Shown: positions 3,345 through 32,000, counted from the stretch's first letter. The stretch: 32,000 nt of DNA from Cyclobacteriaceae bacterium (GCA_016787755.1 JAEUUA010000009.1:21263-53262); one strand, 5' to 3'. The notes: generated by a model not told the origin, from the letters alone. Translations and numbers: made by a program.

Positions 3345-4844
3345 TTAGTGAATGTCGCCCATTAATTTTTTAAGGGGTTTATTGAATAGCCAGATAATTA
3401 TTCCAGAAACAATCATCACGCTAACAACACCTTGAAAAAGATCAACCAAAAGTTGAGGGTTGGTTGTAATTGAAGTCTCATCAAATTCACCAGAGAATAG
3501 ACCAGCCACAAGATTACCGAGGGCAAGAGACATAAACCAAACGCCCATCATCTGACCAACCAGTCTTTTGGGTGAGAGTTTTGACACTGCACTCAACCCA
3601 ATTGGGTAAAGACATATTTCGCCAAACGTGTGAAAGATATAAGTGAAAATAAGCCACGTAGGGAGGGCTTTGCTACCGGAAACAATAATCATTGAGCCAC
3701 CCATCATTACCGCATAGCCAAGCCCCATGAAGATAAGACCCAACGAAAGTTTTTTAGGCGTAGAAGGATTTAGATTGCGTTTCGATAGCCAAACCCAAAG
3801 CCATGCAAACAAGGGTACAAAGATGACGACCGAAGCCGCAGGCACAACTTGAAACCAGCCTGCGGGAAACTCGAAAGATCCTATAAAACGGTCTGTATAG
3901 CGATCAGCAAAGATGGTGAGCGAAGATCCTTGTTGCTCGTAACCAAAGTAAAACATGGCTGAGGCTAAGAAAAATATCGCAATCGCTTTTATTTTATTCT
4001 TTTCGCTTTTGTCAAGCTTTTCGAAAAGCAAAATGTATCCAAAATAGAGCACTACACTTCCCCCGATGGCATACACAGAAGCGGTCGCAATTGTAACCGG
4101 ATTGATAGTAATTACTCTGGTTAATAAAAGCGCTATAAATGAAATGAGTAGCACAGCAAAAATCAATAATCCAACTATAAAATTCTTTTCTCTTTTACTC
4201 TGAAGAATGGGGTCAGCTAATTTATTGGGTTCGAGCCCGGCAAGTCCAAGATTTTTTTCAGTTAACTTGTATTGAATAACCCCCAGCAACATTCCAATGC
4301 CTGCAGCCGCAAATCCATAATGCCAGTTGATAGTCTCTCCCAAATAACTTGTAATGATGGGTGCCAGGGTGGCACCAATGTTAATTCCAAGATAAAAAAT
4401 AGAGAATCCTGAATCTCGTCTGGCTTGCTCGCTAGAAGAGTATAATTCACCCACAAGGCTGCTTATATTGGGTTTCAGCAGGCCAGTACCCATCACAATA
4501 AGTAGCAAACCAATAAAAAATGTTTCTGTAAAAGGAAACGCAAGACAAAAATGACCTGCCGTAATTAAACACCCTCCATAAAATACCGATTTACGCAATC
4601 CAAAAAATTTATCAGCTAGCCAACCTCCCGGTAATGCCAGCAAATAAACAAACATGGTGTAGAGGCCATAGATTGCACCACCCGTTTTTACATCAATGCC
4701 CATCCCTCCTTCTTCAACCGAAGCCAGCATAAACAACAATAACAATGCCCGCATGCCGTAGTAGCTGAAACGCTCCCACATTTCAGTGAAGAAAAGAGTA
4801 GCAAGCCCGCGTGGGTGACCAAAGAATGTTTTACTTGAACTCAT
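3345..4844 (-). CDS. POT/PTR2-family proton-dependent di/tripeptide transporter (DtpT-like)
   Basis: PTR2 signature at the N-terminus (FGHPRGLATLFFTEMWERFSYYGMRALLLLFM). 499-aa MFS-type topology. Confidence 0.9.
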   Translation of the reverse strand: MSSSKTFFGHPRGLATLFFTEMWERFSYYGMRALLLLFMLASVEEGGMGIDVKTGGAIYGLYTMFVYLLALPGGWLADKFFGLRKSVFYGGCLITAGHFCLAFPFTETFFIGLLLIVMGTGLLKPNISSLVGELYSSSEQARRDSGFSIFYLGINIGATLAPIITSYLGETINWHYGFAAAGIGMLLGVIQYKLTEKNLGLAGLEPNKLADPILQSKREKNFIVGLLIFAVLLISFIALLLTRVITINPVTIATASVYAIGGSVVLYFGYILLFEKLDKSEKNKIKAIAIFFLASAMFYFGYEQQGSSLTIFADRYTDRFIGSFEFPAGWFQVVPAASVVIFVPLFAWLWVWLSKRNLNPSTPKKLSLGLIFMGLGYAVMMGGSMIIVSGSKALPTWLIFTYIFHTFGEICLYPIGLSAVSKLSPKRLVGQMMGVWFMSLALGNLVAGLFSGEFDETSITTNPQLLVDLFQGVVSVMIVSGIIIWLFNKPLKKLMGDIH

Positions 4845-8316: not shown

Positions 8317-9804
8317 ATGAATCAACACGAACCTTCAGGAAAACTTACTCGCCAAATGGGATTGGTGGGCCTGGCCGCCACCGGTATTTGTTCTATGATC
8401 GGTGCCTCCATCTACGTGGTTCCGTTTATGATTCAACGAAACGTGCCCGGTATTGGACCGTATGTACTACCCGCATTTTTATTTGCTGCCATTCCCGCTA
8501 CGTTGGCCGCGTTTGCTTACATCATTTTGGCTTCGGCTATGCCGCGCGCTGGCGGAAGTTATATTTATGCAAGTCGTGCCTTAAATCCATACCTCGGGTT
8601 TATCGCCAGCTTCTCACAATGGTTTGGATTATCAATTGCCATTGGTGTCGTGTCGTATGTAATCGTACCCTTTCTTCGCGATGTAGCAACAACCCTGCAT
8701 TGGAATGATCTTGCAACCTGGCTCAATGAAGGATTTATTCGGGTTTCCTTATCCCTGTTAATTCTTTGGACGTTTGTCATCATTAATATCCGGGGTATAA
8801 AACTCTATGAGCGCACCGTTGTTCCCTTAATGTTTCTAATGTTTGGCCTGGGGGCGATTGTGATTGTTGCCGGGTTAATTTTTAATCAACAGGATTTCGC
8901 GGAAGCAGTTTTAATTCGGGATAAGAAGGTTATTCCTGAAACGATGGCCATTTTCAATTGGAAAACTTTTCTGGCAGGTTCAGCCTTATTGTTCTCAAGC
9001 TTTATTGGGTTCGATTCGATTGCGCAAGCGGGTGGCGAAGCCAAAGATCCTGCCCGATCCCTTCCTCGTGCCATCGGGATTGCCATTTTGGTAGTCAGTT
9101 CATTTTATATTCTTTTCACGCTTGCCGTTTATCACACAGTGCCCTGGAGTTTTGTAGCACAAGAATCGTTGATAAAAGATATTACAGCCCCCGGGTTGTT
9201 AAGCTATGTGCTTCCTTCGGGGTGGGCTGTTCCAATTGTATTGGGGGCAGCTATTGCGCTAACAAATGATTTGCCCGCCATGATCTTGTCCGTTTCACGA
9301 CTCATGTTTTCGTGGGCAGAGGATGGGATTTTCCCAAAACAAATTTCACTAATACACCCAACACTTCACACACCACATATTGCGATTCTGCTTAGCGGGC
9401 TAATGGCCAGTATAGGAATTTTAGGAAGTCACTTCGCTGGTGATTTCTTTTTGGGTATCGATATCATGGTAACTTCCATGCTGGTGAATTTTTTGTTGAT
9501 GTGTATCTCGGTACTCGTCCTTCCAAAAACAAATCCAGCCATCGCCAAAGAAATAAAAGTCTTCAAATCGAATGCGCTACAAAAAACACTAGCAATCACC
9601 GGATCACTCTGGCTTTTTGGATTTTTGATCATTCACATCACTAAAGATCTTTCCGCTTCAGCCGATGCCTGGTATTTTCACTCTACTCCTGTTTGGTTGC
9701 TGGTAATGGCAACCGCTTCCGCAATTTTCTATTATTATTGGACTCGATTAAAAAAATCAGGCGTAAATACTAAAAAGCTTTTCTCAACCTTACCAGCAGA
9801 ATAA
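8317..9804 (+). CDS. APC-family amino acid permease
   Basis: 495 aa with about 12 predicted TM segments. The N-terminal GLVGLAATGICSMIGASIYVVP and MPRAGGSYIYASRAL motifs are typical of APC transporters. Confidence 0.85.
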   Translation: MNQHEPSGKLTRQMGLVGLAATGICSMIGASIYVVPFMIQRNVPGIGPYVLPAFLFAAIPATLAAFAYIILASAMPRAGGSYIYASRALNPYLGFIASFSQWFGLSIAIGVVSYVIVPFLRDVATTLHWNDLATWLNEGFIRVSLSLLILWTFVIINIRGIKLYERTVVPLMFLMFGLGAIVIVAGLIFNQQDFAEAVLIRDKKVIPETMAIFNWKTFLAGSALLFSSFIGFDSIAQAGGEAKDPARSLPRAIGIAILVVSSFYILFTLAVYHTVPWSFVAQESLIKDITAPGLLSYVLPSGWAVPIVLGAAIALTNDLPAMILSVSRLMFSWAEDGIFPKQISLIHPTLHTPHIAILLSGLMASIGILGSHFAGDFFLGIDIMVTSMLVNFLLMCISVLVLPKTNPAIAKEIKVFKSNALQKTLAITGSLWLFGFLIIHITKDLSASADAWYFHSTPVWLLVMATASAIFYYYWTRLKKSGVNTKKLFSTLPAE

Positions 9805-19062: not shown

Positions 19063-19626
19063 TCAAATAGCAAGAAAAATTAAAAATACCAACACGCTAA
19101 AAATAAACCCAAACATAAATACCTGATACGCATAGGCCAGCAAGTTGTATTTGCGTTTCAATATTTTGCCTTGATTGTGCAAATCAATGGTCATGTGTTC
19201 ATATAAATCTTCATCCGAGTCAAGCAAGGTTTTCATTTTCTCCAGATAATCCTGTTGGCTGTGAAGTGATATCACGCCAAAAAAAAGTAAACTTGATTTT
19301 TGCATTTCACCGCCTTCAGCTTTCGCCTGAATTAATTTAGGGCGTGCCGCCTGAATGGCAAAAATTACAGAGACCAGGCAGGAGAGAATGATCATTACGA
19401 TGGGAACCATCACACTGGCTTCATAGGTATCGATTTTACCGGCCACCGCACCGTACCCCGTAATGGCAATGATGGAAGAGATAATCATGGTGTTGATGCT
19501 GATAATGATGTTGGCCTTATTATCAGCCATTTGAATCAGGTTGCTTTGGTTTTGATAGGCAGAGCGAAACAAGGTTTCTCGTCCTCTGCCCGGTTTCTTC
19601 TTTTTCTTAGGTGGCTTTACTTCCAT
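19063..19626 (-). CDS. DUF5706 / PycTM-like (Pycsar-effector-family) two-TM membrane protein
   Basis: Lys-rich N-terminus, then MADNKANIIISINTMIISSII (the ADxKA motif), two TM helices and a C-terminal KRKYNLLAYAY + TM. This arrangement recalls the Pfam PycTM/DUF5706 family. The CDS call is strong. The family assignment is from memory. Confidence 0.55.
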   Translation of the reverse strand: MEVKPPKKKKKPGRGRETLFRSAYQNQSNLIQMADNKANIIISINTMIISSIIAITGYGAVAGKIDTYEASVMVPIVMIILSCLVSVIFAIQAARPKLIQAKAEGGEMQKSSLLFFGVISLHSQQDYLEKMKTLLDSDEDLYEHMTIDLHNQGKILKRKYNLLAYAYQVFMFGFIFSVLVFLIFLAI

Positions 19627-19665
19627 AAAACTAAAAGTAGTTTATTTTATTTAGATTCTTCTCAA
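19610..19665. repeat. Direct repeat copy A (covers the start codon and 5' leader of the PycTM-like gene)
   Basis: GGTGGCTTTACTTCCATAAAACTAAAAGTA... recurs 227 nt away at 19837. Confidence 0.85.
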
Positions 19666-19785
19666 GTTAATAAACTATCCATGTCGCTGGTCTGGTTACG
19701 AGCACAATCCCCGTCAACAACTTATACTCATCGCACAGAGTTCTCGAAAAGAGTAACTCTGCAAAGAAAAAAATCTATATTATGA

Positions 19786-19809
19786 GTTGCGGGTCAGGCG
19801 ACCCGCAAC
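19786..19809. repeat. Perfect 10-bp-stem palindrome GTTGCGGGTC-AGGC-GACCCGCAAC
   Basis: Read directly from the sequence. Related copies are at 21702-21720 and 30165-30189. Confidence 0.8.
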
Positions 19810-19836
19810 AACTATTTTTGACCAACAACAACTTGG

Positions 19837-19888
19837 GGTGGCTTTACTTCCATAAAACTAAAAGTAACTTATTTTTAGATTCTCTTAA
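19837..19888. repeat. Direct repeat copy B (orphan duplicate of the PycTM-like gene 5' end)
   Basis: The first 30 nt are identical to copy A, and the remainder matches with small indels. On the minus strand it retains ATG GAA GTA AAG CCA CC and then reaches a stop after 13 codons. Confidence 0.85.
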
Positions 19889-20614: not shown

Positions 20615-20676
20615 ATTATTAATGACGGTCAACAAATCATTGGTGACCCGTATTGATCACACTTAAAATAAAAATC

Positions 20677-21042
20677 ATGGACACCCTTGAAAACGACTCA
20701 ACGCAAAACATGAAGACACTTTCTGAATGCATAAATGATGCTGTTAAGAAAGGATATACTGAAAACTTTGAGATTTCAGGAAAGAAAATGATCACCGAAG
20801 ATAAAAAATCTTCGTTCACTCCTGAGAATACAGTTATTTCAGACTTTTTCAGGTTTGAAGGAAATTCCGATCCCCAAGACAATGCCGTTCTCTATCTTAT
20901 TGACACTAACGATGGAAAAAAAGGAATTCTCATTGATGCCTATGGCACCTATGCTGATGCAGATATTTCCAGTTTCATAGTCGAAGTGGAAGAAATCCAA
21001 AAGAAAACTCCTGTGGTGAGAAATCAAGGTTTAGTTTTTTAA
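20677..21042 (+). CDS. Conserved small protein of unknown function
   Basis: The blocks FRFEGNSDPQDNAVLYLIDTNDGKKGILIDAYGTYAD and FIVEVEEIQKK match a ~110-120-aa Bacteroidota family that I recall being mislabelled 'phosphoribosylpyrophosphate synthetase'. The ATG at 20677 is preferred to the TTG at 20653. Confidence 0.65.
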   Translation: MDTLENDSTQNMKTLSECINDAVKKGYTENFEISGKKMITEDKKSSFTPENTVISDFFRFEGNSDPQDNAVLYLIDTNDGKKGILIDAYGTYADADISSFIVEVEEIQKKTPVVRNQGLVF

Positions 21043-21487
21043 AAGACCAAAGACAGGCCTACTTCCAAACGGTGTCTCCTGCCTCGGTGACTCTTCGCAT
21101 TCCTGACTTATTTCTCTTTATCGTTTTACTTACTAAACTTATTATATAATTCACGCTTCATTTTATTCAGGGCTGTCTTTCACGTTACGCGGAGTCCCTC
21201 CTCGCGCTCATTCCATTACTCCTGGAGACTCCTCTAGGAAAGAGAAAACTCCTGTGGTGAGAAATCAAGGTTAGTTTTTTAAAAGACCAAAGACAGGCCT
21301 ACTTCCAAACGGTGTCTCCTGCCTCGGTGACTCTTCGCATTCCTGACTTATTTCTTTTTATCGCTTTACTTACTAAACTTATTTTATAATTCACTCTTCA
21401 TTTTATTCCGGGCTGTCTTTCACGTTACGCGGAGTCCCTCCTCACGCTCATTCCATTACTCCTGGAGACTCCGCTAGGAAAGAGAAA
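21003..21487 (+). repeat. Two-copy tandem duplication, period 241/240 bp
   Basis: Copy 1 is 21003-21243 and copy 2 is 21244-21487. By hand alignment they differ by 7 substitutions and one 1-nt indel. Copy 1 includes the last 13 codons and the stop of the preceding CDS. Confidence 0.9.
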
Positions 21488-21932
21488 GGGGTGAATCTCT
21501 CAAGATAATAGTTATCAAAGTTGAGTGCCATTATGTAACCTACTCACTTTACCAATAGGCAAGATTCATCACTGTTACTTTGCTTTGTACTTTTTTGCCG
21601 CCCGCATGCTCACGCACCCCGCCCTTCGTTCAAGCCATCGCTCTCATAATTCCAAACTAAGATTATATTATAAATCTATCCTAATTCTTGCGCCTTCGTT
21701 CTTGTTGGTCGCCTGACCACCATTTTCACACAATCTCTAAATATTCTGGCCATTTGAGATTGATCTATTGAGGCTGTCAAAGGTGCGGGCAAGGCGTCTT
21801 GACACCTAAGATTTATCAATACTCTTACGCCAGCTCACAGTTCGTCAAGCATTTGTTACAGGTGGTCAAAGATTCAAAAACGTGTCGAGTGTTTGTGCGT
21901 ATTTAACATCAAAAATAATTAAACACAAAACT

Positions 21933-22400: not shown

Positions 22401-22432
22401 GTCGTCTGACCACTTGAAGTGGTCTTGACGAC
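22401..22432. repeat. 32-nt nested palindrome GTCGTCTGACCACTTGAAGTGGTCTTGACGAC (copy 1)
   Basis: Identical to 26901-26932. It lies 15 nt after the stop of the 21933..22385 CDS and could be a terminator or REP-like element. Confidence 0.85.
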
Positions 22433-22642
22433 TTGCCGGACTTGCTAGTCTGTCAATACCTTACTGCCAAACATTAAGTAAGAAGCTAATTCTTTTTTTC
22501 CACCCCCTGACCCCCGCCTGCGGGGGATAGTTTTAGACTATGGATGAATAGAAGTTATGGCGATTACCTTCTACACTTCTTCTGTCGAGTATCGTCTCCG
22601 CTTTCGGGATGATGCATGACACTTGACGACTTGCTGGTTTTG

Positions 22643-23623
22643 CTATTTGGCTGCTTTAAATTTTACGACTGAATTTGAAAGCGGGGTTACCGTTTTTAGG
22701 TACGCATAAATTGCTTCAAGATCTTCGGACTTCATTTGTCCGTACATTGTCCAGGGCATTATCGTATTGAATTCACCAACTGCAACTGGCTCGACAACAT
22801 ACGTAGAATCGGCATACGCTTTAAACCGCTGAACAAATAATTCTTTGGTCCAGGAGCCAATTCCGGTTTCTTTATCTGGAGTGATATTAGCTGATGTTAC
22901 TACCGATCCATCCGGAAACTGAAACTCGCGGCCCCCGCCAAACCTGACTTCAGGAATAATTCGTCCTTTGTCTACTTGCGTATGACACTCCACACATCCG
23001 GCTGCATTGGTAAGATAAGCACCATAGGCCAGCAGATCCGTTTTTGGCGGCAGTGTGCCATTTGCTGCTTTCTGTGGAATCGTATTAAGGATGAAGTTCA
23101 TGGGAAAGTCAGGCCTGGAATCGGGTACTGCATTTTCCCTGGCCGGAATAGAACGTACGTATGAAATAATACTGTAGATATCTTCTTTGTCCATACGGCC
23201 ATAGTATGGATAGGGCATCAGTGGAAACATGGCGCGGCCTTCTTTTGTAACTCCGGTTGTAATCACCCGAAATAATTCACCATCTGTGTAGCGCTGAATT
23301 CCTGCAGGCGTAATATTCCTGGCATAAAACACTCCGGGCAAACCCATACTTTGATCGAACACATCACCCCCCATACCCAACGTACCTTCCGTTAAGGGTC
23401 CTGAAAACTTTGACCAATCACGTTTTGAATGACAGTCCATACACACTGTAACCGTATGGGCAAGGTAACGGCCACGTTCTATCCGTTCTGTAGTGTAATC
23501 AATCTTAAGGTCTTCGGGTTCGCCCACATTGGGGAGCGCGAGTTTTACATAACTGAGCACCCCCGCTAATACCAGCAGGACAAATGCAAGCAGATATCCG
23601 ACATACTTCAGGATAGTTTTCAT
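22643..23623 (-). CDS. Membrane-anchored di-haem c-type cytochrome
   Basis: Two CxxCH motifs (CMDCH, CVECH) and an N-terminal TM anchor, MKTILKYVGYLLAFVLLVLAGVL. Confidence 0.85.
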   Translation of the reverse strand: MKTILKYVGYLLAFVLLVLAGVLSYVKLALPNVGEPEDLKIDYTTERIERGRYLAHTVTVCMDCHSKRDWSKFSGPLTEGTLGMGGDVFDQSMGLPGVFYARNITPAGIQRYTDGELFRVITTGVTKEGRAMFPLMPYPYYGRMDKEDIYSIISYVRSIPARENAVPDSRPDFPMNFILNTIPQKAANGTLPPKTDLLAYGAYLTNAAGCVECHTQVDKGRIIPEVRFGGGREFQFPDGSVVTSANITPDKETGIGSWTKELFVQRFKAYADSTYVVEPVAVGEFNTIMPWTMYGQMKSEDLEAIYAYLKTVTPLSNSVVKFKAAK

Positions 23624-23711
23624 AATGAGGGTTTAAGTTTTTGAGATGACTAAGATAGTAAAAAGCGAAATTATTTGCTAAAGGAAGTATTCCGTAGTGC
23701 ATAACTCACTG

Positions 23712-24305
23712 CCCCTGCCCGTGTTGGTGTTCTTTACCAACACGTTTCTTATAACCTCCAATAAGAAAGCCGTTCTGTTTGGGGGATCCTTCTCCGCCAG
23801 CTGGCGGATAAGGATTGGACCAAAGTTGGGGGGTTCTTCCCTACTCTTTGGTGCGTGACTCACGAAACACTTTTATTAAATCACTAACCGTAGATTCCAA
23901 GTCGCGCTAAAAATTGAAACGCAATCCTGAGCGGCCAGCTTGTCATTCGTATAGGATGCTTGCATGAAGACATAGCCTAATAGTTGACCGAAGTATACTA
24001 GAGCGAAGGATCCCCAATAAGAAAGCCGTTACCTGTTTGGGGGATCCTTCTCCGCCAGCTGGCGGATCAGGATTGGACTAAGGTTGGGGGGTTCTTCCCC
24101 GTGGGTATACAAAAAATTGGAACGCAATCCTGAGCGGCCAGCTTGTGCCATCGTATATCATGCTTGCATGAAGACATAACCTAATAGTTGACCGAAGTAT
24201 ACTAGAGTGAAGGATCCCCAATAGGAAAGCCGTTGCCTGTTTGGGGATCCTTCTCCGCCAGCTGGCGATCAGGATTGGAATAAGGTTAGGGAACTTCTGC
24301 AATCG
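23712..24305 (+). repeat. Mosaic repeat array R1 (module a, then two b modules with d linkers)
   Basis: The a head CTGCCCGTGTTGGTG is at 23715. The b heads ATTG(A/G)AACGCAATCCTGAGCGGCCAGC are at 23913 and 24116. The sequence is near-identical to modules at 25.66-26.9 kb. Confidence 0.9.
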
Positions 24306-24444
24306 ATTATACTTCCGTGGTTCGGGTTATCAACAACCACTACCATTAAAATGATAATTTAACTACTGAGATGTTATAATAGAAGGCATGGATTCCTATG
24401 GGGCATCATCCTTCGCTTTGATTGTTTCATAAATAATCCAATAC

Positions 24445-25104
24445 CTAATTATAATTTCCCTGATCTGGTGTATAATGACTTTTATAAAAAAGGGTTGGCT
24501 CCATCAGAAAATATTGGTTGTTATATTTTTTTAAAAACTTACCAGCACTCACACTGAAAATTCCGCTCGACCAGGTGGCATCACACACATACGATTTTCC
24601 GTTAAGTTGAATAACATTCCATGAATGATTGACAGTGCCCAGAACGCTCCGATCAATACCAGTAGGTTTTGCATACCCATTCACAACCACGCACGTAAGC
24701 CCGGCATGAAATGCTAATTCCCGCACCAGGTAGGCGTAGCCGGTACAAATAGTTTTTCGCTCCTGAAGGAGCGTTTCAAAAACCATCTTGTTGAAGGTTT
24801 TATTCCAATAGGTGAGCTCTTCTCCTTTCAGGGTGGATCTATTCTTTTTATTAAGGATAAGTAGTTCATAGTCAGCCTCAATATTGCTGCACACCCATTT
24901 ATAGATCGCACGAAATTTTTCCTGATCCGTTGGCAGCGAGCTTGTTAATTTGTCGGATAAGGTTTTTATATCTATTAACGAGTGTGCAGCATAGCGATCT
25001 GCTATACTGTCTGCATCATGGAAATTCGTAGTCCTAAAATCACTGACTTGACCACGGACTGAGAAACAGTAAAAGACAAACAATATAAACCAGAAACGCT
25101 TCAT
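24445..25104 (-). CDS. Secreted transglutaminase-like (papain-fold) protein
   Basis: Signal peptide, with a Cys-His-Asp context typical of the transglutaminase-like core (CTGYAYLVRELAFHAG, VNHSWNVIQL, YVCDATWS). Confidence 0.8.
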   Translation of the reverse strand: MKRFWFILFVFYCFSVRGQVSDFRTTNFHDADSIADRYAAHSLIDIKTLSDKLTSSLPTDQEKFRAIYKWVCSNIEADYELLILNKKNRSTLKGEELTYWNKTFNKMVFETLLQERKTICTGYAYLVRELAFHAGLTCVVVNGYAKPTGIDRSVLGTVNHSWNVIQLNGKSYVCDATWSSGIFSVSAGKFLKKYNNQYFLMEPTLFYKSHYTPDQGNYN

Positions 25105-25120
25105 GGTACAAATTCACTCT

Positions 25121-25570
25121 CTAATTGTCAACCTTACCTTTGCGTACTTTTTTAAGTGGAACAGCCACTGTGGTGTTCTTGTTGCCTTCAACCAGTATTT
25201 CGTCAACCATTTGAATGGGATCAACTTCCATCGTAATCTCAATAAAGGCCACTGGCTGTTCAGGCACTGTGTATTCAATTGTTTTTAGTCCTAAAAAACT
25301 AAAGACTAGTACATCCCCACTTTTCACAGGACGTGGAAACGTAAACTCACCCTGGGCATCCGAAAAGGTACCTATTGATGAAAGGCTTTTCAGGTAGATG
25401 TTAGCTCCCGATACCGGCTGAAGATCATCAAAGTATTTTACTGTCCCGCGAATACCCTGGGTAGTTTGTGCGAATACATTGGCACTTAGGAAGGCCACGA
25501 ACAAAATTGCGAGAGCAGTTTTTACTGCATGTTGGCCAACAGGACTGTTGTTTTCATGTATTGTTTTCAT
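25121..25570 (-). CDS. Secreted stand-alone carboxypeptidase-regulatory-like (CarboxypepD_reg) domain protein
   Basis: Signal peptide ending in NVFAQ, then IRGTVKYFDDLQPVSGANIYLKSLSSIGTFSDAQGEFTF...GDVLVFSFLGLKT, as in the N-terminal extension of SusC-type receptors. It ends 16 nt upstream of the transglutaminase-like gene. Confidence 0.7.
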   Translation of the reverse strand: MKTIHENNSPVGQHAVKTALAILFVAFLSANVFAQTTQGIRGTVKYFDDLQPVSGANIYLKSLSSIGTFSDAQGEFTFPRPVKSGDVLVFSFLGLKTIEYTVPEQPVAFIEITMEVDPIQMVDEILVEGNKNTTVAVPLKKVRKGKVDN

Positions 25571-25654
25571 AAGAATAGTTGGTTAAGTTTCTTGTGTGAT
25601 GCAGGTGCTGGAAGAATTCCATAACTCATCGATAATTCTTTTAAAAGTATTTCA

Positions 25655-26900
25655 AGCCTCTGCCCGTGTTGGTGTGGCCCTGCCTATGTTGGTGTTCTTC
25701 ACCAACACGTTTCTTATAACCTCCAATAAGAAAGCCGTTCTGTTGGGGGGATTCTTCCCCGTGGGTATACAAAAAATTGAAACGCAATCCTGAGCGGCCA
25801 GCTTGTGCCATTCGTATAGGATGCTTGCATGAAGACATAACCCAATAGTTGACCGAAGTATACTAGAGCGAAGGATCTCCAATAAGAAAGCAGTCTTCTG
25901 TTTGGGGGGATCCTTCTCCGCCAGCTGGCGGATCAGGATTGGAGCAAGGTTAGGGAGATCCTTCGCTTCGTGGTTTCCTTCCAAAGAGAACAACTCTTCT
26001 ATAGATTCAACTGCTGACGAAACCCATTCATGGTTCGCACTGGATTGGACCAAGGTTGGGGGATTCTTCCCCCGTGGGTATACCCTGCCCGTGTTGGTGT
26101 TCTTCACCAACACGTTTCTTATAACCTCCAATAAGAAAGCCGTTCTGTTGGGGGGATTCTTCCCCGTGGGTATTCAATAAATTGGAACGCAATCCTGAGC
26201 GGCCAGCTTGTGCCATCGTATAGGATGCTTGCATGAAGACATAACCTAATAGTTGACCGAAGTATACTAGAGCGAAGGATCCCCAATAAGAAAGCAGTCT
26301 TCTGTTTGGGGGGATCCTTCTCCGCCAGCTGGCGGATCAGGATTGGAGCAAGGTTAGGGAGATCCTTCGCTTCGTGGTTTCCTTCCGAAGAGAACAATGC
26401 TTCTATAGATTCAACTGCTAACGAAACCCATTCATGGGTTCGCTCAGGATTGGACTAAGGTTGGGGGGGTTCTGCGATCGGTGACCCCTGCCCGTGTTGG
26501 TGTTCTTCACCAAAACGTTTCTTATAACCTCCAATAAGAAAGCCGTTCTGTTGGGGGGATTTTCCCCGTGGGTATACAAAAAATTGAAACGCAATCCTGA
26601 GCGGCCAGCTTGTGCCATTCGTATAGGATGCTTGCATGAAGACATAACCCAATAGTTGACCGAAGTATACTAGAGCGAAGGATCCCCTAATAAGAAAGCA
26701 GTCTTCTGTTTGGGGGGATCCTTCTCCGCCAGCTGGCGGATCAGGATTGGAGCAAGGTTAGGGAGATCCTTCGCTTCGTGGTTTCCTTCCGAAGAGAACA
26801 ACTCTTTTATAGATTCAACTGCTAATGAAACCCATTCATGGGTTCGCTCAGGATTGGACTAAGGTTGGGAGCTTCTGCGATCGGTGACAACGAAGGCAAA
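25655..26900 (+). repeat. Mosaic repeat array R2: three tandem composite units (a-b-c-d)
   Basis: Unit heads CTGCCCGTGTTGGTG are at 25660, 26085 and 26488, with spacing 425 and 403. The b heads are at 25776, 26181 and 26583. The c modules are at 25955-26050, 26359-26455 and 26763-26859. Confidence 0.95.
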
Positions 26901-26932
26901 AGTCGTCTGACCACTTGAAGTGGTCTTGACGA
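26901..26932. repeat. 32-nt nested palindrome GTCGTCTGACCACTTGAAGTGGTCTTGACGAC (copy 2)
   Basis: Identical to 22401-22432. It lies 14 nt beyond the stop of the minus-strand CDS 26947..27651. Confidence 0.85.
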
Positions 26933-26946
26933 CTAGCCAGGATTAC

Positions 26947-27651
26947 TTACTCCAACGGCAAAAATCCAAAGGGGATGACAGATGCTTTTTGCATGGTGGC
27001 ACGTGTGCTTGGTGGGGATATGATCGGTTGCGTTTGTAGCGAAGCCTGATACGCTGCTACCAATTGATCGCGCGCTTCATCATTAAACGTTACTACCACC
27101 TGCTGATGGCCCAACGCTTTTAGCAAACTCTCAAGATATTCTTTCCCCTCGGCTTCGGCCTGAATTAAAATGCGATTCGATTCGGCTAACTGACGAGCCG
27201 TGTCCATGCGCGAAGCAATCGTTTTGCCGAGGTAGTCACTCACGGTAGGATATAAATCTTTGCCCACATGAACTTGCACGGATCTCGTTTCACGAATCAC
27301 CATACGGTTGGTATGATACACCGGTTCGTTTAACTCAGCCCGAGGCAAGATTACGGTGCGCAGCGAATCGTTTTGCCAAACTAACTCAACGTCTTTTAAA
27401 TTTAAGAAGGCTGTAATGGTAACGGGCACTTGCACCATCGCGCGGATGGCTTTTGCCGGGTTGTTGTTCTTATGGATAAAAAACAAATCGGTGTACGTAT
27501 GTTTCACCAAATGCAATTCGCGGATGGAAAGTATTTGCTCCAACGTAAGTTGCTGGGGCGATTGGGACGGAGTAATGCGGCCGTAAAAGAATCCGCCTAT
27601 GAACGCGGCTACAATCAGGCCAATAGAAAGGATGGGAATGATCTTTTTCAT
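26947..27651 (-). CDS. DUF4230-like membrane-anchored protein
   Basis: N-terminal TM (IPILSIGLIVAAFIGGFFYG). The pattern ELHLVKHTYTDLFF...VQVPVTITAFLNLKDVEL...RTVILPRAELNEPV resembles DUF4230. The family call is from memory. Confidence 0.55.
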   Translation of the reverse strand: MKKIIPILSIGLIVAAFIGGFFYGRITPSQSPQQLTLEQILSIRELHLVKHTYTDLFFIHKNNNPAKAIRAMVQVPVTITAFLNLKDVELVWQNDSLRTVILPRAELNEPVYHTNRMVIRETRSVQVHVGKDLYPTVSDYLGKTIASRMDTARQLAESNRILIQAEAEGKEYLESLLKALGHQQVVVTFNDEARDQLVAAYQASLQTQPIISPPSTRATMQKASVIPFGFLPLE

Positions 27652-27839
27652 GTGTTAATAATTTTTGTGGCCACATGGAATTCGCATATTGAGATTTACC
27701 CTTTGGATCAAATTCTTTGATTAACAGCCCCTTGGGTAGCTTGGCTTATGCTCATTTCATGATGCATGCTATTAAGAAGGTTACTTAATTAAGTAAACCT
27801 CTGCACGCATCGCTACGCGCAGAGGCTAATAGAATAGAC

Positions 27840-28565
27840 TCATCGCACGTTGGGTTTGGTGAAACGAATCTGATAGGTGGCCCGTGTGGCTTCGCTGTTA
27901 TGGCCAAACGTTGCCCGTACTTGCTGGCGCACAGCACGCGCAATGGCAATCAAACTGTTCTCGTTTGTGTAGAGCAATTCATTGCGATCTCTGCGGGCTT
28001 TGCCCCAGGCCACCACGGCATTCAACACGGCTGCATTGATTGCACGCAACTCGCTCAGTGTAGTTTGTAAACTAGGTACTTGCAAGTCGGTGATGCCCGG
28101 TTGATAGCGGGGCTCGGCTGCCAAAGTTTGAATCAACTTCTGGAAGTGATACACCACGCTGCTGTAGTCGGAGCCATAGGTGCGCTTGCGCGTTACCTCA
28201 ACGGCAACTTCGTTGGCTGTTGATGCCACCGGTGCGCGATCTTTTAACACTTGCCCGCGAATCTTGCGCACCGCCACATACGCATCGGCCAGGGTTTGGG
28301 GCAACACCTGTGACGACCGCAGTTCAAACACAATACGCGAAACGAGTTTCTTCAAATTGATGTAGGCCACCTCGCGTTTGTTGGTGGCATTCTCTAACTC
28401 AGTTTTAGCTGTACTTACTTGCCGCACTGCCTCCCGACTGTTGGCCAATAACTCAGTTAAACTTTCCATGCGGAGATTGGGCTTACCGGGATTGTATGAT
28501 CCTCCGTATCCGGTGCAGATGCCTACGAGCTTCCCGAAGGCTTCTACATTTTTTAAGTTGGACAT
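27840..28565 (-). CDS. Hypothetical protein, predicted all-alpha, no recognisable family
   Basis: 241-aa ORF with clean coding-like composition and no competing ORF. G+C is noticeably higher than in neighbouring genes. Confidence 0.7.
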   Translation of the reverse strand: MSNLKNVEAFGKLVGICTGYGGSYNPGKPNLRMESLTELLANSREAVRQVSTAKTELENATNKREVAYINLKKLVSRIVFELRSSQVLPQTLADAYVAVRKIRGQVLKDRAPVASTANEVAVEVTRKRTYGSDYSSVVYHFQKLIQTLAAEPRYQPGITDLQVPSLQTTLSELRAINAAVLNAVVAWGKARRDRNELLYTNENSLIAIARAVRQQVRATFGHNSEATRATYQIRFTKPNVR

Positions 28566-28599
28566 AAAATAAATTGTTATGTTATACTTACATGCAACG

Positions 28600-28608
28600 C
28601 AAAGTGTA
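28600..28608 (-). promoter_or_regulatory. Candidate Bacteroidota -7 promoter box for the 27840..28565 gene
   Basis: The minus strand reads TACACTTTG (TAnnTTTG with one extra leading base), about 35 nt upstream of the ATG at 28565. This is a motif match only. Confidence 0.25.
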
Positions 28609-28725
28609 CTTATCTATGTTGCGCTTTAGTATCACTATTTTAAAAACTATTTAGTTGATGATAAGGACAACTACCTTGACGGTGTTGCGTTCTTAAGCGG
28701 CTGCTTAATAAACAGCACTGATCGT

Positions 28726-29025
28726 ATTGATACACTGCGCTACTACACGTGACGTACTGGATTTGCACATAGGTACACTACTCCCCTACAATGATACACT
28801 AGAATTATATATAGGTACACTGCTTCACTACATGTGGCACACAAGAATTATGCATAGGTACACTGCTCTACTACTCCTGACACTCAAGAATTATACATAG
28901 GTACACGGCTCTACTACACCCGCCATACAAGAAATATATATAGGTACACGGCTTCACTACACCCAACACACAAGAATTACACATAGGTGCACTGCCACAC
29001 TACACCTGGCGCACCGCTGCTTTTC
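28726..29025 (+). repeat. Seven-unit tandem repeat, period 42-43 bp
   Basis: Units start at 28726, 28769, 28811, 28854, 28897, 28940 and 28983. The conserved core is ATAGGTACAC(T/G)GCT(C/T)(C/T)ACTAC, followed by a more variable ~10 nt and then CAAGAATTAT. Confidence 0.9.
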
Positions 29026-29029
29026 TGGT

Positions 29030-29335
29030 GGTGCGTGACTCACGTGAGGACACAGACCAAGAAGAAAGGGAATACAATAAATTGAAACGCAATCCTGATC
29101 CGCCAGTTGGCGGAGAAGGATCCCCAATAAGAAAGCGAGATCCTTCGCTCCGTGGTATCCTTTCGAAGAAAAAACTCTTCTTTAGATTCAACTACTAACG
29201 AAACCCATTCATGATTCACTCAGGATTGGAATAAGATTAGGGAGATCCTTCGCTCAATGGTTTCCGAAGAGAACAACTCTTCTATAGATTCAACTGCTAA
29301 CGAAACCCATTCATGGTTCGCTCAGGATTGGACCA
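29030..29335 (+). repeat. Mosaic repeat array R3 (GGTGCGTGACTCACG motif, truncated b, two tandem c modules)
   Basis: The b head is at 29081, fused directly to an inverted copy of the b tail (CAATCCTGATCCGCCAGTTGGCGGAGAAGGATCCCC). The c modules are at 29137-29230 and 29242-29333. Confidence 0.9.
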
Positions 29336-29581
29336 CCGAACTAAGGCAAAACCACCTTTATTAAAAACGTTTTTGCAAACCATCATTGCCCATGGTTGGT
29401 GTTTTCACCAACCAATACACATAGCGGATCGGTGATAACACCGACCTAAGGCAAAAATTCTTTTCGAGTTTATCTTGCTTGCCCGGAATGACAGGTAATT
29501 ATTGACGCAACACTACATACCGAAGCTGTCATCGCGGGCGAGGCACGAGACCCGCTATCTCATATTATTTTCGTAGGGAAT

Positions 29582-29836
29582 AAAAAAATTGAAACGCAAT
29601 CCTGAGCGGCCAGCTTGTGCCATTCGTAATGATGCTTGCATGAAGATGTAACCTAGTCTAGTTGATCGAATTGTATTCTAGCGAAGGATCCCCTAAAGCA
29701 GAAGGTCGTTCTGTTGGGAGAATTCTCATTGAATGCTTGCATGAAGACACAACCTAATCGTTGACCGAAGCATACTGTAGCGAAGGATCCCCTGAATCAG
29801 AAGGCTGTTATCTGTTGGGGAGATCCTTCGCTCTCA
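29582..29836 (+). repeat. Mosaic repeat array R4 (divergent b module with internal duplication)
   Basis: The b head is at 29588. The ATGCTTGCATGAAGA...CGAAGGATCCCCT...CTGTTGGG block is present twice. Confidence 0.85.
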
Positions 29837-30235
29837 GTCAGTATTTTACTTTACGCACTAACTTCATCGGCAATCAATCTGCATCCAGCTTTCTTTCTTC
29901 GTTCTTTTTGTCTTAACCACAAAAAGAACCAAAAAAGTCAAGGCCGAAAAATGCTTCCCCCCTCATGCTAACACGCCACCCCGCTTTTCGGCCGGGCCAA
30001 CGCTCTTACGTTTTCAAACTTCAATTATGTAAATTATTTAGTTAGGAATTGTTGGGTCTGTTATCTCTTGCTGACTGCGAACGAATAGTAATAAATTATA
30101 ACATGTTATAATCCAAAGCACTCAACCTATCCCCCGCTGGCGGGGGTTGGGGGGTGCCTACGTTATTGTTGGGTCGCCTGACCAACAATCTAAATTCTTC
30201 AAACCTCGATTCGTATCTGCACAAAGCAAATTCAA

Positions 30236-30358
30236 TAAGTTGAAACACAATCCTGAGCGGCCAGCTTGTACCATTTGTATGATGCTTGAATGAAGACACA
30301 ACCTAATCGTTGGCCGAAGTATACCAGAGCGAAGGATCCCCGATAAGAAAGCCGTTAA
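30236..30358 (+). repeat. Mosaic repeat R5 (divergent, truncated b module)
   Basis: GTTGAAACACAATCCTGAGCGGCCAGCTTGTACCATTTGTATGATGCTTGAATGAAGACACAACC...CGAAGGATCCCCGATAAGAAAGCCGTT. Confidence 0.85.
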
Positions 30359-30665
30359 CACCCGCAGGCAAAAAGAAGAACGTCTATTTTTCTGGTGGCC
30401 TGCTCACTTTTATAACCATTCCCATTTTTTCGAACAACCGTTGTTGGTTGCGGCTGCGCGCAGGACGTTTGGTATCTGGTTCCTTTTGTTCCTCCTTTTT
30501 GCTTGCCGGATTTTCGTTTTCTGTTTTCATAGCATTATTTTTTAGTAACCCAATGGACGAGTTATTCACTCATTTTGATTTTGGGGCATTGAATATACTA
30601 CAAAATTTAACATGTTGGCAGAGGGCAAAAAGCGGTGCGGTGATAACACCGACCGGAGGCAAAAA

Positions 30666-31400
30666 TTACCCCATCCATTTCATAATCAACGAAAATAGAA
30701 CGGACAGCATAGGTATAATCATAAAGTAGCTCAGTCGCTTTGTTTTTGAATCCACATTTTTACTCTTCCTCAGAATCAACATTGAGTACGTCATAAATAC
30801 TAAAAAAGTAATTCCACTAAAGCTTGAGATGTAAAGATTTTCCGAGTAAAATGAGGTAAACATAAGTACCACCCCTACTAGTGCAATTGGAAGTTGAAAG
30901 GTTTGCCATAATGAAGTAGAAGTTTTTATAGTTAAGGATTTAATGCCACTTAATAATGTCTCAAGCTCCTCTTTGCGCTCAATCGCTGGTGAAACCCCGA
31001 TTGCATTCATCTTGCTATCACCAAGTATCGTCAAGGCTCCATTTTTACTTTTGATTATTTCCTGAACGTCTTTTATTAAAATTGTAATAGTGGGGGTATG
31101 CAGCATCTCTCTGCTAATGCTGTCTTCGCTAATAATTAGTTTATAGCTGGCCAGCATAGCCTTTTGCTTCTTTAGTGCATTCAAAAGTGAAAAGGTCAAA
31201 ACTCCTATCATCAAAATGATCGTAAATAATGTGCTCGTGCCCGTAATTGAACTGTTACCCGCATCCCCATTAAAAAAGAAAGGAACAATAAAGACAACGA
31301 GTATAACGATTATAAAGAGATACAGCATTCTTTTAATGATATTCATTTTTAATGCTTTAAACCCCTCCGGGTTAACTTTAAACTCTTGTGTACTAATCAT
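30666..31400 (-). CDS. Hypothetical integral membrane protein (2 TM, a soluble ~90-aa domain, then 2-3 TM)
   Basis: 244-aa ORF with clear hydrophobic segments. It is very AT-rich (a sampled line gives ~27% G+C). I recognise no family. Confidence 0.65.
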   Translation of the reverse strand: MISTQEFKVNPEGFKALKMNIIKRMLYLFIIVILVVFIVPFFFNGDAGNSSITGTSTLFTIILMIGVLTFSLLNALKKQKAMLASYKLIISEDSISREMLHTPTITILIKDVQEIIKSKNGALTILGDSKMNAIGVSPAIERKEELETLLSGIKSLTIKTSTSLWQTFQLPIALVGVVLMFTSFYSENLYISSFSGITFLVFMTYSMLILRKSKNVDSKTKRLSYFMIIPMLSVLFSLIMKWMG

Positions 31401-31630
31401 AAGTGAGAAGAAAATATTGCTTAAGATTCACCTATTTGGTTTTACTTTTCTAACATAAAGTACAACTACTACCACAATAATTATAGGAGCGAGAAATAAA
31501 AGGAGTTGTGTTATCATATAAATTTTATAGGGTTAGACCGGCTGTAAATCAAATTTCTAATATTTTTTTGTGTTTTCTACCAACTCATATACTCCCAGTT
31601 CTTGTATTCCTGTTCAATTATATAAAGTCT

Positions 31631-31985
31631 TCTGCGTTCGGTGATAACACCGACCGCAGGCAGAAGGGAGATCCTTCGCTCTATGGTTTCCGAAGAGAAC
31701 AACTCTTCTATAGATTCAACTGCTGACGAAACCCATTCATGGTTCGCTCTGGATTGGACCAAGGTTGGGGGATTCTTCCCCCGTGGGTATACAAAAAATT
31801 GGAACGCAATCCTGAGCGGCCAGCTTGTGCCATTCGTATAGGATGCTTGCATGAAGACATAACCTAATAGTTGACCGAAGTATACTAGAGCGAAGGATCC
31901 CCTAATAAGAAATCCGTTATCGGTTGGGGAGATCCTTCGCTCTTTACTCTGCTTAAGAAGAGAACTTCGCTGTGTAGATTTTATT
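31631..31985 (+). repeat. Mosaic repeat array R6 (CGGTGATAACACCGACC motif, c, d, b, degenerate c); may continue past the window end
   Basis: The c module is at 31668-31759 and the b head at 31798. The sequence is near-identical to the R2 modules. Confidence 0.9.
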
Positions 31986-32000
31986 TTTTAACCAGACCCA

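Follow-up and report, generated by a model that had tools for sequence, protein, structure and literature searches.

The REP units of E. coli, 20-40 nt long and present in hundreds per genome, are associated with a RAYT gene. Integron attC sites usually measure 57-141 nt. Neisserial intergenic mosaic elements (NIMEs) consist of RS modules flanked by dRS3 inverted repeats and are present in hundreds per genome; the 20-bp dRS3 (ATTCCCN8GGGAAT) is also a phage integration target, and such arrays were stated to be unseen outside Neisseria (PMC1797815). BOX elements of Streptococcus pneumoniae follow the plan boxA-(boxB)n-boxC and occur as more than 100 dispersed copies per genome, and terminal inverted repeats, target-site duplications and a candidate parent IS have been reported for them (PMC3049150).

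We analysed a 32,000-nt stretch of DNA from a Cyclobacteriaceae bacterium (GCA_016787755.1 JAEUUA010000009.1:21263-53262; hereafter, the window), in which repeated b and c modules occupy long intergenic gaps. With a probability of roughly 0.55, we consider them a lineage-restricted, modular, hairpin-forming intergenic mosaic repeat of the BOX/NIME kind, grown by local duplication and recombination and possibly transcribed. An earlier sequence-only reading had placed nine b heads and six c modules on the plus strand, and both sets were recovered at the same positions (Table 1), the b heads as matches to ATTGRAACRCAATCCTGA where 0.01 would be expected by chance, and the c modules by a profile search of both strands, which detected no minus-strand copy of b or c in the window. 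Two short motifs of the family, AGCGAAGGATCYCC (24 occurrences) and CGCTCAGGATTGGA (19 occurrences), are found exclusively within 23782-31941 (about 0.2 expected by chance); within the window, the family is restricted to 8 kb. The gap sizes of 821, 1376, 2100 and >580 nt given by that reading are correct, as are the short spacers (<250 nt) of the first 19 kb. Its statement that every intergenic gap is filled needs correction, as no copy lies in the gaps at 27652-27839 (188 nt) and 25105-25120 (16 nt). Where it had counted eight CDSs between 22643 and 31400, we find six credible ones on the minus strand, taking 80 aa as the minimum length; the ORFs 25652-26131 and 26119-26397 lie inside the repeats. 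Similarly, b heads and c modules do all face the same way, but the 36-nt quasi-palindrome p (GGGGATCCTTCTCCGCCAGCTGGCGGATCAGGATTG) has one inverted occurrence, at 29090-29125, and the 'b head' at 29081 is therefore a truncated chimera. The view that these sequences constitute one structured, strand-asymmetric repeat family and not random palindromic junk is upheld.

Table 1. Features of the repeat arrays, with positions counted from the first nucleotide of the window.
Feature	Position	Strand	Basis or remark
b heads	23913, 24116, 25776, 26181, 26583, 29081, 29588, 30239, 31798	+	match to ATTGRAACRCAATCCTGA; 30239 with one mismatch
c modules	25955, 26359, 26763, 29137, 29242, 31668	+	profile search
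Gap 1 leader modules	23712..23912	+	sequence
Module a: hairpin CGTGTTGGTG-TTCTT-TACCAACACG and T tract	23720-23744	+	terminator-like call
Quasi-palindrome p, one copy	23782-23817	+	gap 1 leader; small GGGGGGTTCTTCCC hairpin 3' of p
Module d: degenerate hairpin and TTTTATT	~23848-23912	+	directly 5' of first b head; aligns with L060 and L070 copies
Two short-form units in tandem, 204-nt period	23913..24291	+	b-core, 14-bp hairpin, palindrome TCCGCCAGCTGGCGGA closing onto TCAGGATTGGA
Three tandem 404-nt units, each of module a, short-form b and c	25678..26888	+	TRF: 3.0 copies, 94% matches
b in 404-nt units	25767-25900, 26172-26304, 26574-26708	+	profile search
c in 404-nt units	25955-26084, 26359-26488, 26763-26894	+	profile search
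Representative module-a hairpin and T tract, CGTGTTGGTGTTCTTCACCAACACG TTTCTTAT	26090..26114	+	terminator-like call
Sister module-a hairpins	23720-23744, 25687-25707, 26497-26513	+ (element strand)	terminator-like call
Chimeric copy	29081..29335	+	18-nt b head fused to inverted p (29090-29125); inverted-repeat pairs I2-I6
Two tandem c modules of chimeric copy	29137-29244, 29242-29335	+	c matches, profile search
Divergent-subfamily b unit, then partial second b-core with full hairpin	29588..29834	+	b 29581-29712; second 29722-29834
Module e, alternative conserved non-coding 3' module after b hairpin	29840..30160	+	blastn against L095; L060_7232 flank
b unit truncated in hairpin loop	30239..30359	+	positional orthologue of L060 3588-3719
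c, then full b-core with hairpin, then start of c2-type 3' module	31668..31985	+	reaches window edge
c of last block / b-core and hairpin of last block	31668-31794 / 31798-31945	+	c2-type module start includes TAGATTTTATTTTTT

The b and c modules each form one half of a unit of about 235 nt, in which the order is b-core, 14-bp hairpin, c. Nine copies, from eight loci, have c immediately after b, and the full units (n=8) measure 231-259 nt, with six of them at 233-237 nt. The unit runs from a leader (TACAATAAATTGAAAC) through the 5' arm (CAATCCTGAGCG), a b-core (about 85 nt, including unpaired blocks that are conserved), the hairpin (AGCGAAGGATCCCC / GGGGATCCTTCGCT) and a c segment of about 95 nt, of which there are two sequence types, to the 3' arm (CGCTCAGGATTG). 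In the consensus fold the two arms form a 12-bp stem that closes the unit, with the 14-bp hairpin inside; they are invariant or nearly so in the eight full units and constitute terminal inverted repeats. Conservation runs about 18 nt upstream past the 5' arm, and the leader occupying this stretch is kept in all lineages. Two long unpaired blocks, GCTTGCATGAAGACA and GACCGAAGTATAC, and the hairpin-loop motif AGAAAGCCGTT are conserved across genomes. The unit ends are ...AAATTGAAACGCAATCCTGAGCG and CGCTCAGGATTGGACCAAGG, and at the module borders lie two short, related motifs in inverted arrangement, each of about 12 nt, GGATCCTTCGCT and CAATCCTGAGCG, both containing ATCCTnnGC.

The build is of an A-(B)n-C-like modular type, with b-c, b-c-c, b-p and b-e forms all present. 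The c module may be iterated (L045, L060 and window 29137/29242) or replaced, either by a 16-nt palindrome, as in the short form of the window, L081, L020 and L070, or by module e, a form found in the window and L060; further variants carry nested insertions of the small hairpins a, d and p or are truncated. Module e lies 3' of b in L060 and twice in L095, and blastn aligns window 29905-30154 with L095 8406-8161 at 84% and window 30044-30159 with L095 9255-9140 at 93%.

Copies within the window are not independent, as seen from its tandem arrays (3.0 x 404 nt and 1.9 x 204 nt), the c-c tandem at 29137/29242 and a window-specific cluster of six b copies from gaps 1, 2 and 4. Members of this cluster are 91-98% identical, as against 86-91% for orthologous b copies, and their sequences suggest partial concerted evolution of the copies from three gaps. 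The b unit at 29588 groups instead with L070_803/248 at about 80% identity. Relatives also carry tandem arrays: L020 has three copies of a period of about 270 nt, and L060 has 2.3 copies of one of 198 nt. The sequence-only reading had named a single segmental duplication, with copies that are not independent events, as one outcome that would undo its finding; much of the array is indeed tandem or local duplication, but it is not a single segmental duplication, since the intervening genes are unduplicated.

The family was seen in about ten Cytophagales MAGs or metagenome contigs (soil Cytophagales). Among 185,579 species genomes, about 12 of 80 matches are real, the other 68 or so agreeing with the 69 or so estimated by chance; four loci with the family came from the metagenome collection, and no copy was found in viral contigs, phages or plasmids. 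Few of these loci are independent, because most represent the same accessory/defence island as the window, in orthologous or related versions. Four of them (L070, L060, L020 and L095) have flanking genes in common with the window at 80-96% amino-acid identity and carry arrays at syntenic positions, while copy number and intervening genes differ and the internal architecture is divergent; one relative has two copies only. The genes between arrays in orthologous loci are variously zeta-toxin-like, DUF559, START, or transglutaminase with CarbopepD_reg, and the defence genes of the island include AbiGi, Mrr, type I R-M, CBASS and a PycTM-like gene. Between cyt c and b the window has modules a and p, and L070 has neither, with boundaries that are not clean. 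Between genomes, b-core identity is 86-92%, about equal to or above that of coding DNA, and flanking non-repeat intergenic DNA gives no alignment. Judged from these alignments, b-core conservation exceeds the need of a passive repeat and points to a function that the mosaic-repeat reading leaves unspecified.

Co-orientation within a locus holds in the window and in L020, L039, L045, L060, L070, L081 and L095. The strict bias relative to transcription that had been claimed for the window does not carry over to other lineages, where flanking genes lie on the opposite strand in 12 cases and on the same strand in 9. The arrays of L020 run in the same direction as their genes, whereas the genes of the window are opposite to the element, and in L100 a c-like module shares the strand of a conserved 241-aa-family gene. 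Such a bias is unsupported also because most carrier loci are orthologous or related versions of one island and not independent. If placements were random and independent, the same orientation over four or five gene-separated gaps would arise with a probability of about 1/16 to 1/32, a somewhat unlikely outcome that counts against the mosaic-repeat reading. On that reading, the uniform orientation probably reflects descent and direct-repeat recombination; the direction in which adjacent genes run would impose no rule on it.

Folding predictions favour the element strand for the inner hairpin in 16 of 19 distinct copies and for the whole unit in 12 of 13, with lower z-scores of the unit in 6 of 8. 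The hairpins that combine a 10-bp stem with a T tract, which belong to module a in the window and to module d in L060, all lie on this strand; on the opposite strand, the sole strong terminator-like hairpin is the gene terminator at 30651-30633, outside the arrays. The better folding and the confinement of strong array terminator-like hairpins to the element strand are two hints of element-strand transcription, and the element may give rise to an independent or antisense RNA. Co-transcription with the genes, the RNA option of the earlier reading, is disfavoured, as the favoured folding strand and the terminator-like hairpins are opposite to them. Both stems are essentially invariant and therefore show no covariation (compensatory changes in 2 of 37 pairs of the consensus fold and 0 of 10 in the hairpin alignment); such stems neither support nor reject the predicted structure, which is not proven to be selected. 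Rfam 15 gave no match in the window at the gathering score, the sole match at E<=1 in 23600-32000 being AsdA (E=0.33, by chance), and at E<=5 nothing at b or c positions in seven related loci. Upstream of b there is no convincing match to a Bacteroidetes-type promoter (TAnnTTTG), and the leader does not fit a -7 box.

Considering these observations together, the mosaic-repeat reading would have the family occupy a single variable island of accessory or defence genes, within a small Cytophagales clade. Tandem duplication, unequal crossing-over and gene conversion, acting on direct copies, would lengthen and shorten the arrays. The arrays would be inherited at syntenic positions, and the gene cassettes separating them would come and go. 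A structured RNA is probably made from the unit's own strand (plus in the window), since this strand folds better and alone carries strong hairpin-plus-T-tract modules in the arrays. As in BOX elements, the repeats are composite and modular, complementary 5' and 3' modules close the structure, and the middle module is absent or tandemly iterated; the members of both families vary in size from tens to hundreds of nucleotides, are predicted to give stable stem-loops once transcribed, group with small repeats of other kinds and contain nested insertions. However, the Cytophagales family is low-copy, confined to one island of a Bacteroidota host, without demonstrable target-site duplication or known parent IS, and has no sequence similarity to BOX. 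Neither a target-site duplication nor an empty site was found, the solitary copies in L083 and L084 being without flanking direct repeats, and mobility of the family is therefore not demonstrated. With NIMEs it has in common arrays of different 50-150 nt modules, short inverted-repeat bounds, adjoining genes that vary between strains in content or sequence, and a proposed role as recombination substrate; the bounds, however, are the motifs of about 12 nt given above and not dRS3, the copy number is low, and the b-core is large and strongly conserved.

Much of this evidence can be read in another way, namely that the b-c unit is a true gene, kept in several copies, for a new small structured RNA about 235 nt long. 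Each copy would be read from its own strand, divergently from or antisense to the accessory genes, and insulated by terminator hairpins of its own, with the repeat-like behaviour being secondary. The tightly kept unit length, the unpaired blocks and loop motif conserved across genomes, the b-core identity at or above that of coding DNA amid unalignable flanks, the leader kept in all lineages, and the folding advantage and strong array terminator-like hairpins of the element strand argue for such a gene. It is nevertheless the less probable reading, a tentative one, for which the absence of an Rfam match even at permissive thresholds, the lack of covariation and a leader unlike the Bacteroidetes -7 box are difficulties; module d, the strongest terminator-like hairpin, lies just upstream of b and not downstream of c, and many copies are truncated, chimeric or provided with alternative 3' modules, as functional RNA genes usually are not. 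With similar reserve, one may speculate that the unit constitutes an undescribed structured RNA class of about 235 nt in a soil Cytophagales clade, or a NIME-like device for defence-cassette exchange outside Neisseria. If the RNA class were real, its multi-copy arrays inside the defence or accessory island would be transcribed antisense to, or divergently from, the cassettes and might regulate or partner the island genes.

Two further readings both appear improbable. In an integron-like cassette system, a site-specific recombinase would insert and excise genes between direct sites, which would explain co-orientation and variable content and agrees with the differing genes between syntenically placed arrays, the two inverted bounding motifs and the defence genes of the island. 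The elements resemble attC sites in being directly repeated, hairpin-forming, strand-asymmetric and placed between small co-directional accessory genes variable between relatives; however, the unit is longer, R''/R' core sites (RYYYAAC/GTTRRRY) are absent from its ends in either orientation by inspection, and gaps in the window hold 2-4 units, where a cassette would have a single one. The window encodes no integrase, and among the families listed and genes called in about 130 kb of related loci, all short of the island borders, there is likewise none. Moreover, L095 has extra genes between DUF4230 and CarbopepD_reg without flanking b or c, module breakpoints are scattered (hairpin loop, b-core, inside a motif) with no single crossover point, and genes in other genomes have no consistent orientation relative to the element. 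The other reading, offered at the outset for the window, takes the repeats as ends or non-autonomous derivatives of single-strand transposons (IS200/IS605 PATE or REP/RAYT-like), with orientation set by the replication fork, so that all copies of one replichore would face alike. Co-orientation of copies within a locus and on one contig would suit it, strand-asymmetric folding could be that of single-stranded DNA, and GC skew of the element strand is negative in the window and all syntenic loci, but near zero or positive in non-syntenic ones. Mobilisation of this kind is unsupported, as the unit ends pair mutually like terminal inverted repeats and do not each form a left-end or right-end hairpin, and no Y1 transposase, TnpB, RAYT or integrase is present among the 25 listed of 51 matched Pfam families (58 flanking ORFs) or among genes called in L095 and L100. 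Copies are few and clustered in one island, as against the high-copy dispersed distribution expected of PATE/REPIN (about 12 real loci in the species genomes, 4 metagenomic). The mosaic, intergenic palindromic clusters of ordered relative orientation do recall BIME/REP-RAYT systems, but a unit of about 235 nt with a conserved interior differs from REPs in size and copy number, and no RAYT link was seen for b/c. Separate REP-like GTAG-headed hairpins (e.g. TGTAGCCCCGGG...CCCGGGGCTA) lie beside b in L084, L028 and L064, where a RAYT-type system may exist.

The b-c element, in which b and c are the two halves of one hairpin repeat, is read here as a modular intergenic mosaic repeat, a known class, that was amplified in place within a variable island. 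Most descriptions of modular mosaic repeats (BOX, NIME and BIME, for example) come from a small number of well-studied pathogens. In soil Cytophagales the b-c family is a clean case, linked to a single variable island with defence-type genes.

The sequence-only reading had counted nine b heads, the conserved starts of b, and six c modules in the window. Both counts hold: the pattern ATTGRAACRCAATCCTGA gives nine matches at exactly the positions claimed, all on the plus strand (chance expectation 0.01), and a profile built from c recovers the six copies, also all plus. No minus-strand b or c copy was found in the window by either profile. The building motifs AGCGAAGGATCYCC and CGCTCAGGATTGGA occur 24 and 19 times, against about 0.2 expected, and are confined to the array region. 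The sizes of the gaps and the shortness of the spacers in the first 19 kb had been described correctly. On careful counting, however, the eight claimed minus-strand coding sequences reduce to six credible genes of at least 80 aa, two ORFs lying inside repeats, and not every gap is filled, as one of 188 nt has no copy. The b and c copies do all face one way, but the 36-nt quasi-palindromic module p is inverted once, and therefore the "head" at 29081 is a chimera. A large part of the array consists of tandem copies (3.0 x 404 nt, 1.9 x 204 nt, plus a c-c pair).

That b and c are not separate elements is seen in other genomes, where c begins a few nucleotides after b in 9 copies at 8 loci. Eight full units measure 231-259 nt, six of them 233-237 nt. 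From 5' to 3', the unit consists of a conserved leader (about TACAATAAATTGAAAC), a 5' arm CAATCCTGAGCG, a b-core of ~85 nt whose blocks GCTTGCATGAAGACA and GACCGAAGTATAC are strongly conserved and for the most part unpaired, a 14-bp hairpin (AGCGAAGGATCCCC / GGGGATCCTTCGCT) in which the loop motif AGAAAGCCGTT is kept, a c segment of ~95 nt occurring in two sequence types, and a 3' arm CGCTCAGGATTG that pairs with the first arm. Variants are frequent: b-c-c forms occur, a short form (five of the window's nine copies) has the palindrome TCCGCCAGCTGGCGGA instead of c, another form carries a different conserved 3' module, e, and truncated copies break in the hairpin loop or within the b-core; small hairpin modules a, d and p are interleaved among the units.

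A scan of 185,579 species genomes (596 Gb) with the 18-mer b-head pattern, too short for specificity, returned 80 loci. About 12 match the b profile (10 with E<=1e-3), all from Cytophagales MAGs assigned to Ohtaekwangia, "Cyclobacteriaceae" or unclassified Cytophagales, and the remaining ~68 agree with the ~69 matches that an 18-mer is estimated to give by chance in a collection of that size. The family thus has few copies and a restricted range. With a stricter pattern, four metagenome loci were found. Phage or plasmid origin was rejected, as BLAST found no match to the repeat family in either record set. Pattern matches in viral contigs are at chance level, except for one unrelated simple hairpin (CATCCTGAGCGAAGCGAAGGATCCCC...GGGGGGATCCTTCGCCGGCGCTCAGGATG, in contig L094), which joins versions of both b-c stem motifs back to back and may be a sign of a broader hairpin-repeat superfamily that gave rise to the b-c unit through insertions. 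No published mention of the motif strings or of Ohtaekwangia repeats was found in a literature search.

Four related loci (L070, L060, L020 and L095) have neighbouring genes in common with the window: a cytochrome c (88.6 % amino-acid identity), a PycTM-like protein (96 %, in L020 and L070), DUF4230 (83-96 %), a conserved 241-aa protein (80-84 %) and a CarbopepD_reg and transglutaminase-like pair. L095 also has other island genes in common with two more loci, L084 and L045. The intergenic positions of the arrays, and their strand relative to the conserved genes, are the same; what differs is array architecture and the intervening genes. Zeta-toxin-like and glycine-zipper genes replace the window's transglutaminase-like and CarbopepD_reg genes in L070, the intervening genes of L020 are DUF559 and START, and L095 carries a 6-kb insert (FG-GAP, methyltransferase, DUF559) at the position of the window's 3 x 404 array, with AbiGi, Mrr, PLD and type I R-M genes on the other side. 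CBASS and caspase-like genes are present in other loci. Since L095 has two b copies only and none in its other gaps, the filling of every gap is a feature of the window lineage. L100, a relative at 55 % identity, has the 241-aa-family gene by itself, once more between non-coding stretches of 1-2 kb; a divergent c-like module in these stretches shares the gene's strand.

The 241-aa protein has no Pfam, NCBIfam or PADLOC match, and its 53 homologues, down to 36 % identity, are all unnamed. Tandem repeats accompany the gene (see table); the period of the window repeat is not a multiple of three, and the 190-aa-type ORF is not preserved there. The PycTM-like gene has no adjacent cyclase gene, its neighbours being cysE- and cysM-like genes and a DUF4142 gene.

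Coordinates of repeats, gaps and neighbouring features in the window and related loci
Feature	Locus	Position	Strand	Remark
Gap 1	window	23624-24444
Gap 2	window	25571-26946
Gap 3	window	28566-30665
Gap 4	window	31401 to end
Gap without copy	window	27652-27839		188 nt
Extent of building motifs	window	23782-31941
Inverted module p	window	29090-29125
Variant with module e	window	29840-30160
241-aa protein gene	window	27840-28565	-
43-nt tandem repeat	window	28731-29008		6.5 copies, 77 % matches; upstream of 241-aa gene
190-aa ORF	L060 (L095, same position)	3730-4069 (L060)	opposite	internal 22/44/87-nt repeats
~130-nt tandem repeats	L100	~9250-9750		with CTTCTTA microsatellite
PycTM-like gene	window	19063-19626	-	Pycsar effector, 2TM
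39-nt repeat pair	window	19610-19875		227 nt apart
240-nt tandem duplication	window	21002-21487		96 % matches; in 1.27-kb gap 20615-21881
46-nt hairpin GTCGTCTGACCACTTGAAGTGGTCTTGACGAC	window	22401-22446, 26902-26947
CGGTGATAACACCG hairpin	window	29418-29459, 30626-30667, 31627-31668		also in L039, L070
Small basic ORF	window	30384-30569	-	61 aa from GTG or 49 aa from internal ATG
tRNA gene	L045	3114-3186	+	2 kb from b array
Flavo-1 match	L045	6687-6773	- (element strand)	between array and hsdM
Hairpin with both stem motifs	L094	713-764		viral contig
GTAG-headed hairpins TGTAGCCCCGGG..CCCGGGGCTA	L084	~4700-4780		REP-like
GTAG-headed hairpins	L028	~1850-1960		REP-like
GTAG-headed hairpins	L064	~3400-3480		REP-like

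Within every locus all copies share one strand. The element lies opposite both neighbours in the window lineage, in L084, L039 and L045 and at one L095 site, and on the same strand as both in L020; the flanks are mixed or partly known in L083, L028, L064, L081 and at the other L095 site. Outside the window lineage, 12 neighbours are on the opposite strand and 9 on the same strand, and there is no orientation rule relative to flanking genes. One cluster of the b-core distance tree (91-98 % identity) contains six copies of the window, located in gaps 1, 2 and 4; their positional orthologues are 86-91 % identical. The copy at 30249 groups with its L060 orthologue, and that at 29598 falls in a third subfamily. 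This grouping leaves about five independent placements in the window; the chance that all five would be co-oriented is about 1 in 16 to 1 in 32, and part of the co-orientation is explained by copying between direct repeats. Whole-locus GC skew, which on the element strand is negative in the window and in all syntenic loci and near zero or positive in non-syntenic ones, points clearly neither to nor away from a replication-strand effect. The uniform orientation is thus a real observation, but the rule drawn from it is local and largely inherited; uniformity at a single locus is not a genome-wide rule until tandem growth and orthology are discounted.

Single-strand transposition of the IS200/IS605 or RAYT type, proposed earlier for the strand bias, finds no support: the family is low-copy and clustered, the unit ends pair with each other, and neither a Y1 transposase nor TnpB is among the families listed for flanking ORFs in the related loci. 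An integron-like cassette system would agree with the variable gene content, however it fails on the absence of attC core sites, on which attC identity was rejected, on a number of sites per gap that does not fit, on scattered breakpoints and on the extra genes of L095, which are not flanked by the repeat. A CRISPR-like reading of the ATTGAAAC head was also rejected, as the sequence upstream does not resemble a repeat and spacers are absent. For the mosaic repeat, the closest known behaviours are those of pneumococcal BOX elements (PMC3049150), with their modular A-(B)n-C build, and of neisserial NIME arrays (PMC1797815), which are syntenic but variable and lie beside variable genes; the likeness is in behaviour only, with no sequence relationship and a far lower copy number here.

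Whether such a repeat acts as RNA or as DNA bears on its meaning. Between genomes the b-core is as conserved as coding DNA, whereas ordinary intergenic sequence nearby is not alignable, so something constrains it. That the core is a functional structured RNA, with transcription from its own strand, is a less likely reading, though one with an appreciable chance; if transcribed, a ~235-nt product is predicted to start near GCAATCC and to end after GGATTGGAC or at the hairpins of modules a and d. Folding favours the element strand: the inner hairpin is more stable on it in 16 of 19 distinct copies, whole units by 4-13 kcal/mol in 12 of 13 with near-balanced base composition, and whole-unit z-scores are lower in 6 of 8. 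Hairpins with a 10-bp stem and a T tract are all on this strand: module a supplies four copies in the window, and module d supplies three strong ones in L060, of which one lies immediately upstream of the b head at 6328. The single strong terminator-like hairpin on the opposite strand is a gene terminator outside the arrays. These three asymmetries, in hairpin stability, unit stability and T-tract hairpins, favour the element strand as the one that probably matters. Three points speak against a simple RNA gene: the conserved leader is no match for the TAnnTTTG box of Bacteroidetes, the strongest hairpin is upstream of b and not downstream of c, and truncated or chimeric copies are many. Both stems are essentially invariant in the unit and inner-hairpin alignments (for the latter, in the pairs aligned by MAFFT outside the variable extension), and covariation is therefore uninformative. 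Sigma-70-type promoters show no excess over shuffled sequence. If the unit is transcribed, it would be a new multi-copy structured RNA in a phylum where few small RNAs have been characterised; if its action is on the DNA level, it would offer a tractable case of repeat arrays marking a gene-turnover hotspot.

Several other identities were rejected. A known RNA family found no Rfam match in the window or seven relatives at gathering and permissive thresholds, and the window holds no tRNA or tmRNA. Peptide coding or a type I toxin-antitoxin tandem was dismissed on inspection, as the unit holds only 3-5-codon ORFs. The idea that the b head, read in reverse complement, is a minus-strand promoter of the divergent gene was also rejected: the arrangement is present in about half of the loci only, and the motif match is poor. 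Near the L045 array, a tRNA gene and a sub-threshold Flavo-1 RNA match (37.6 bits vs gathering 42, E=2e-4) were observed. The 2.1-kb "non-coding" gap of the window contains a small basic ORF.

Other repeats in the window, outside the b-c family, include a tandem duplication and a 39-nt repeat pair. The second copy of the 46-nt hairpin acts as minus-strand terminator of the DUF4230 gene, and one copy of the CGGTGATAACACCG hairpin (30633-30651) reads as an intrinsic terminator of the minus-strand gene 30666-31400. In L084, L028 and L064, the GTAG-headed hairpins, separate from b, and CCCGCCAGCTGGCGGG palindromes lie next to b, an indication that several small repeat families are present in these genomes and cluster together.
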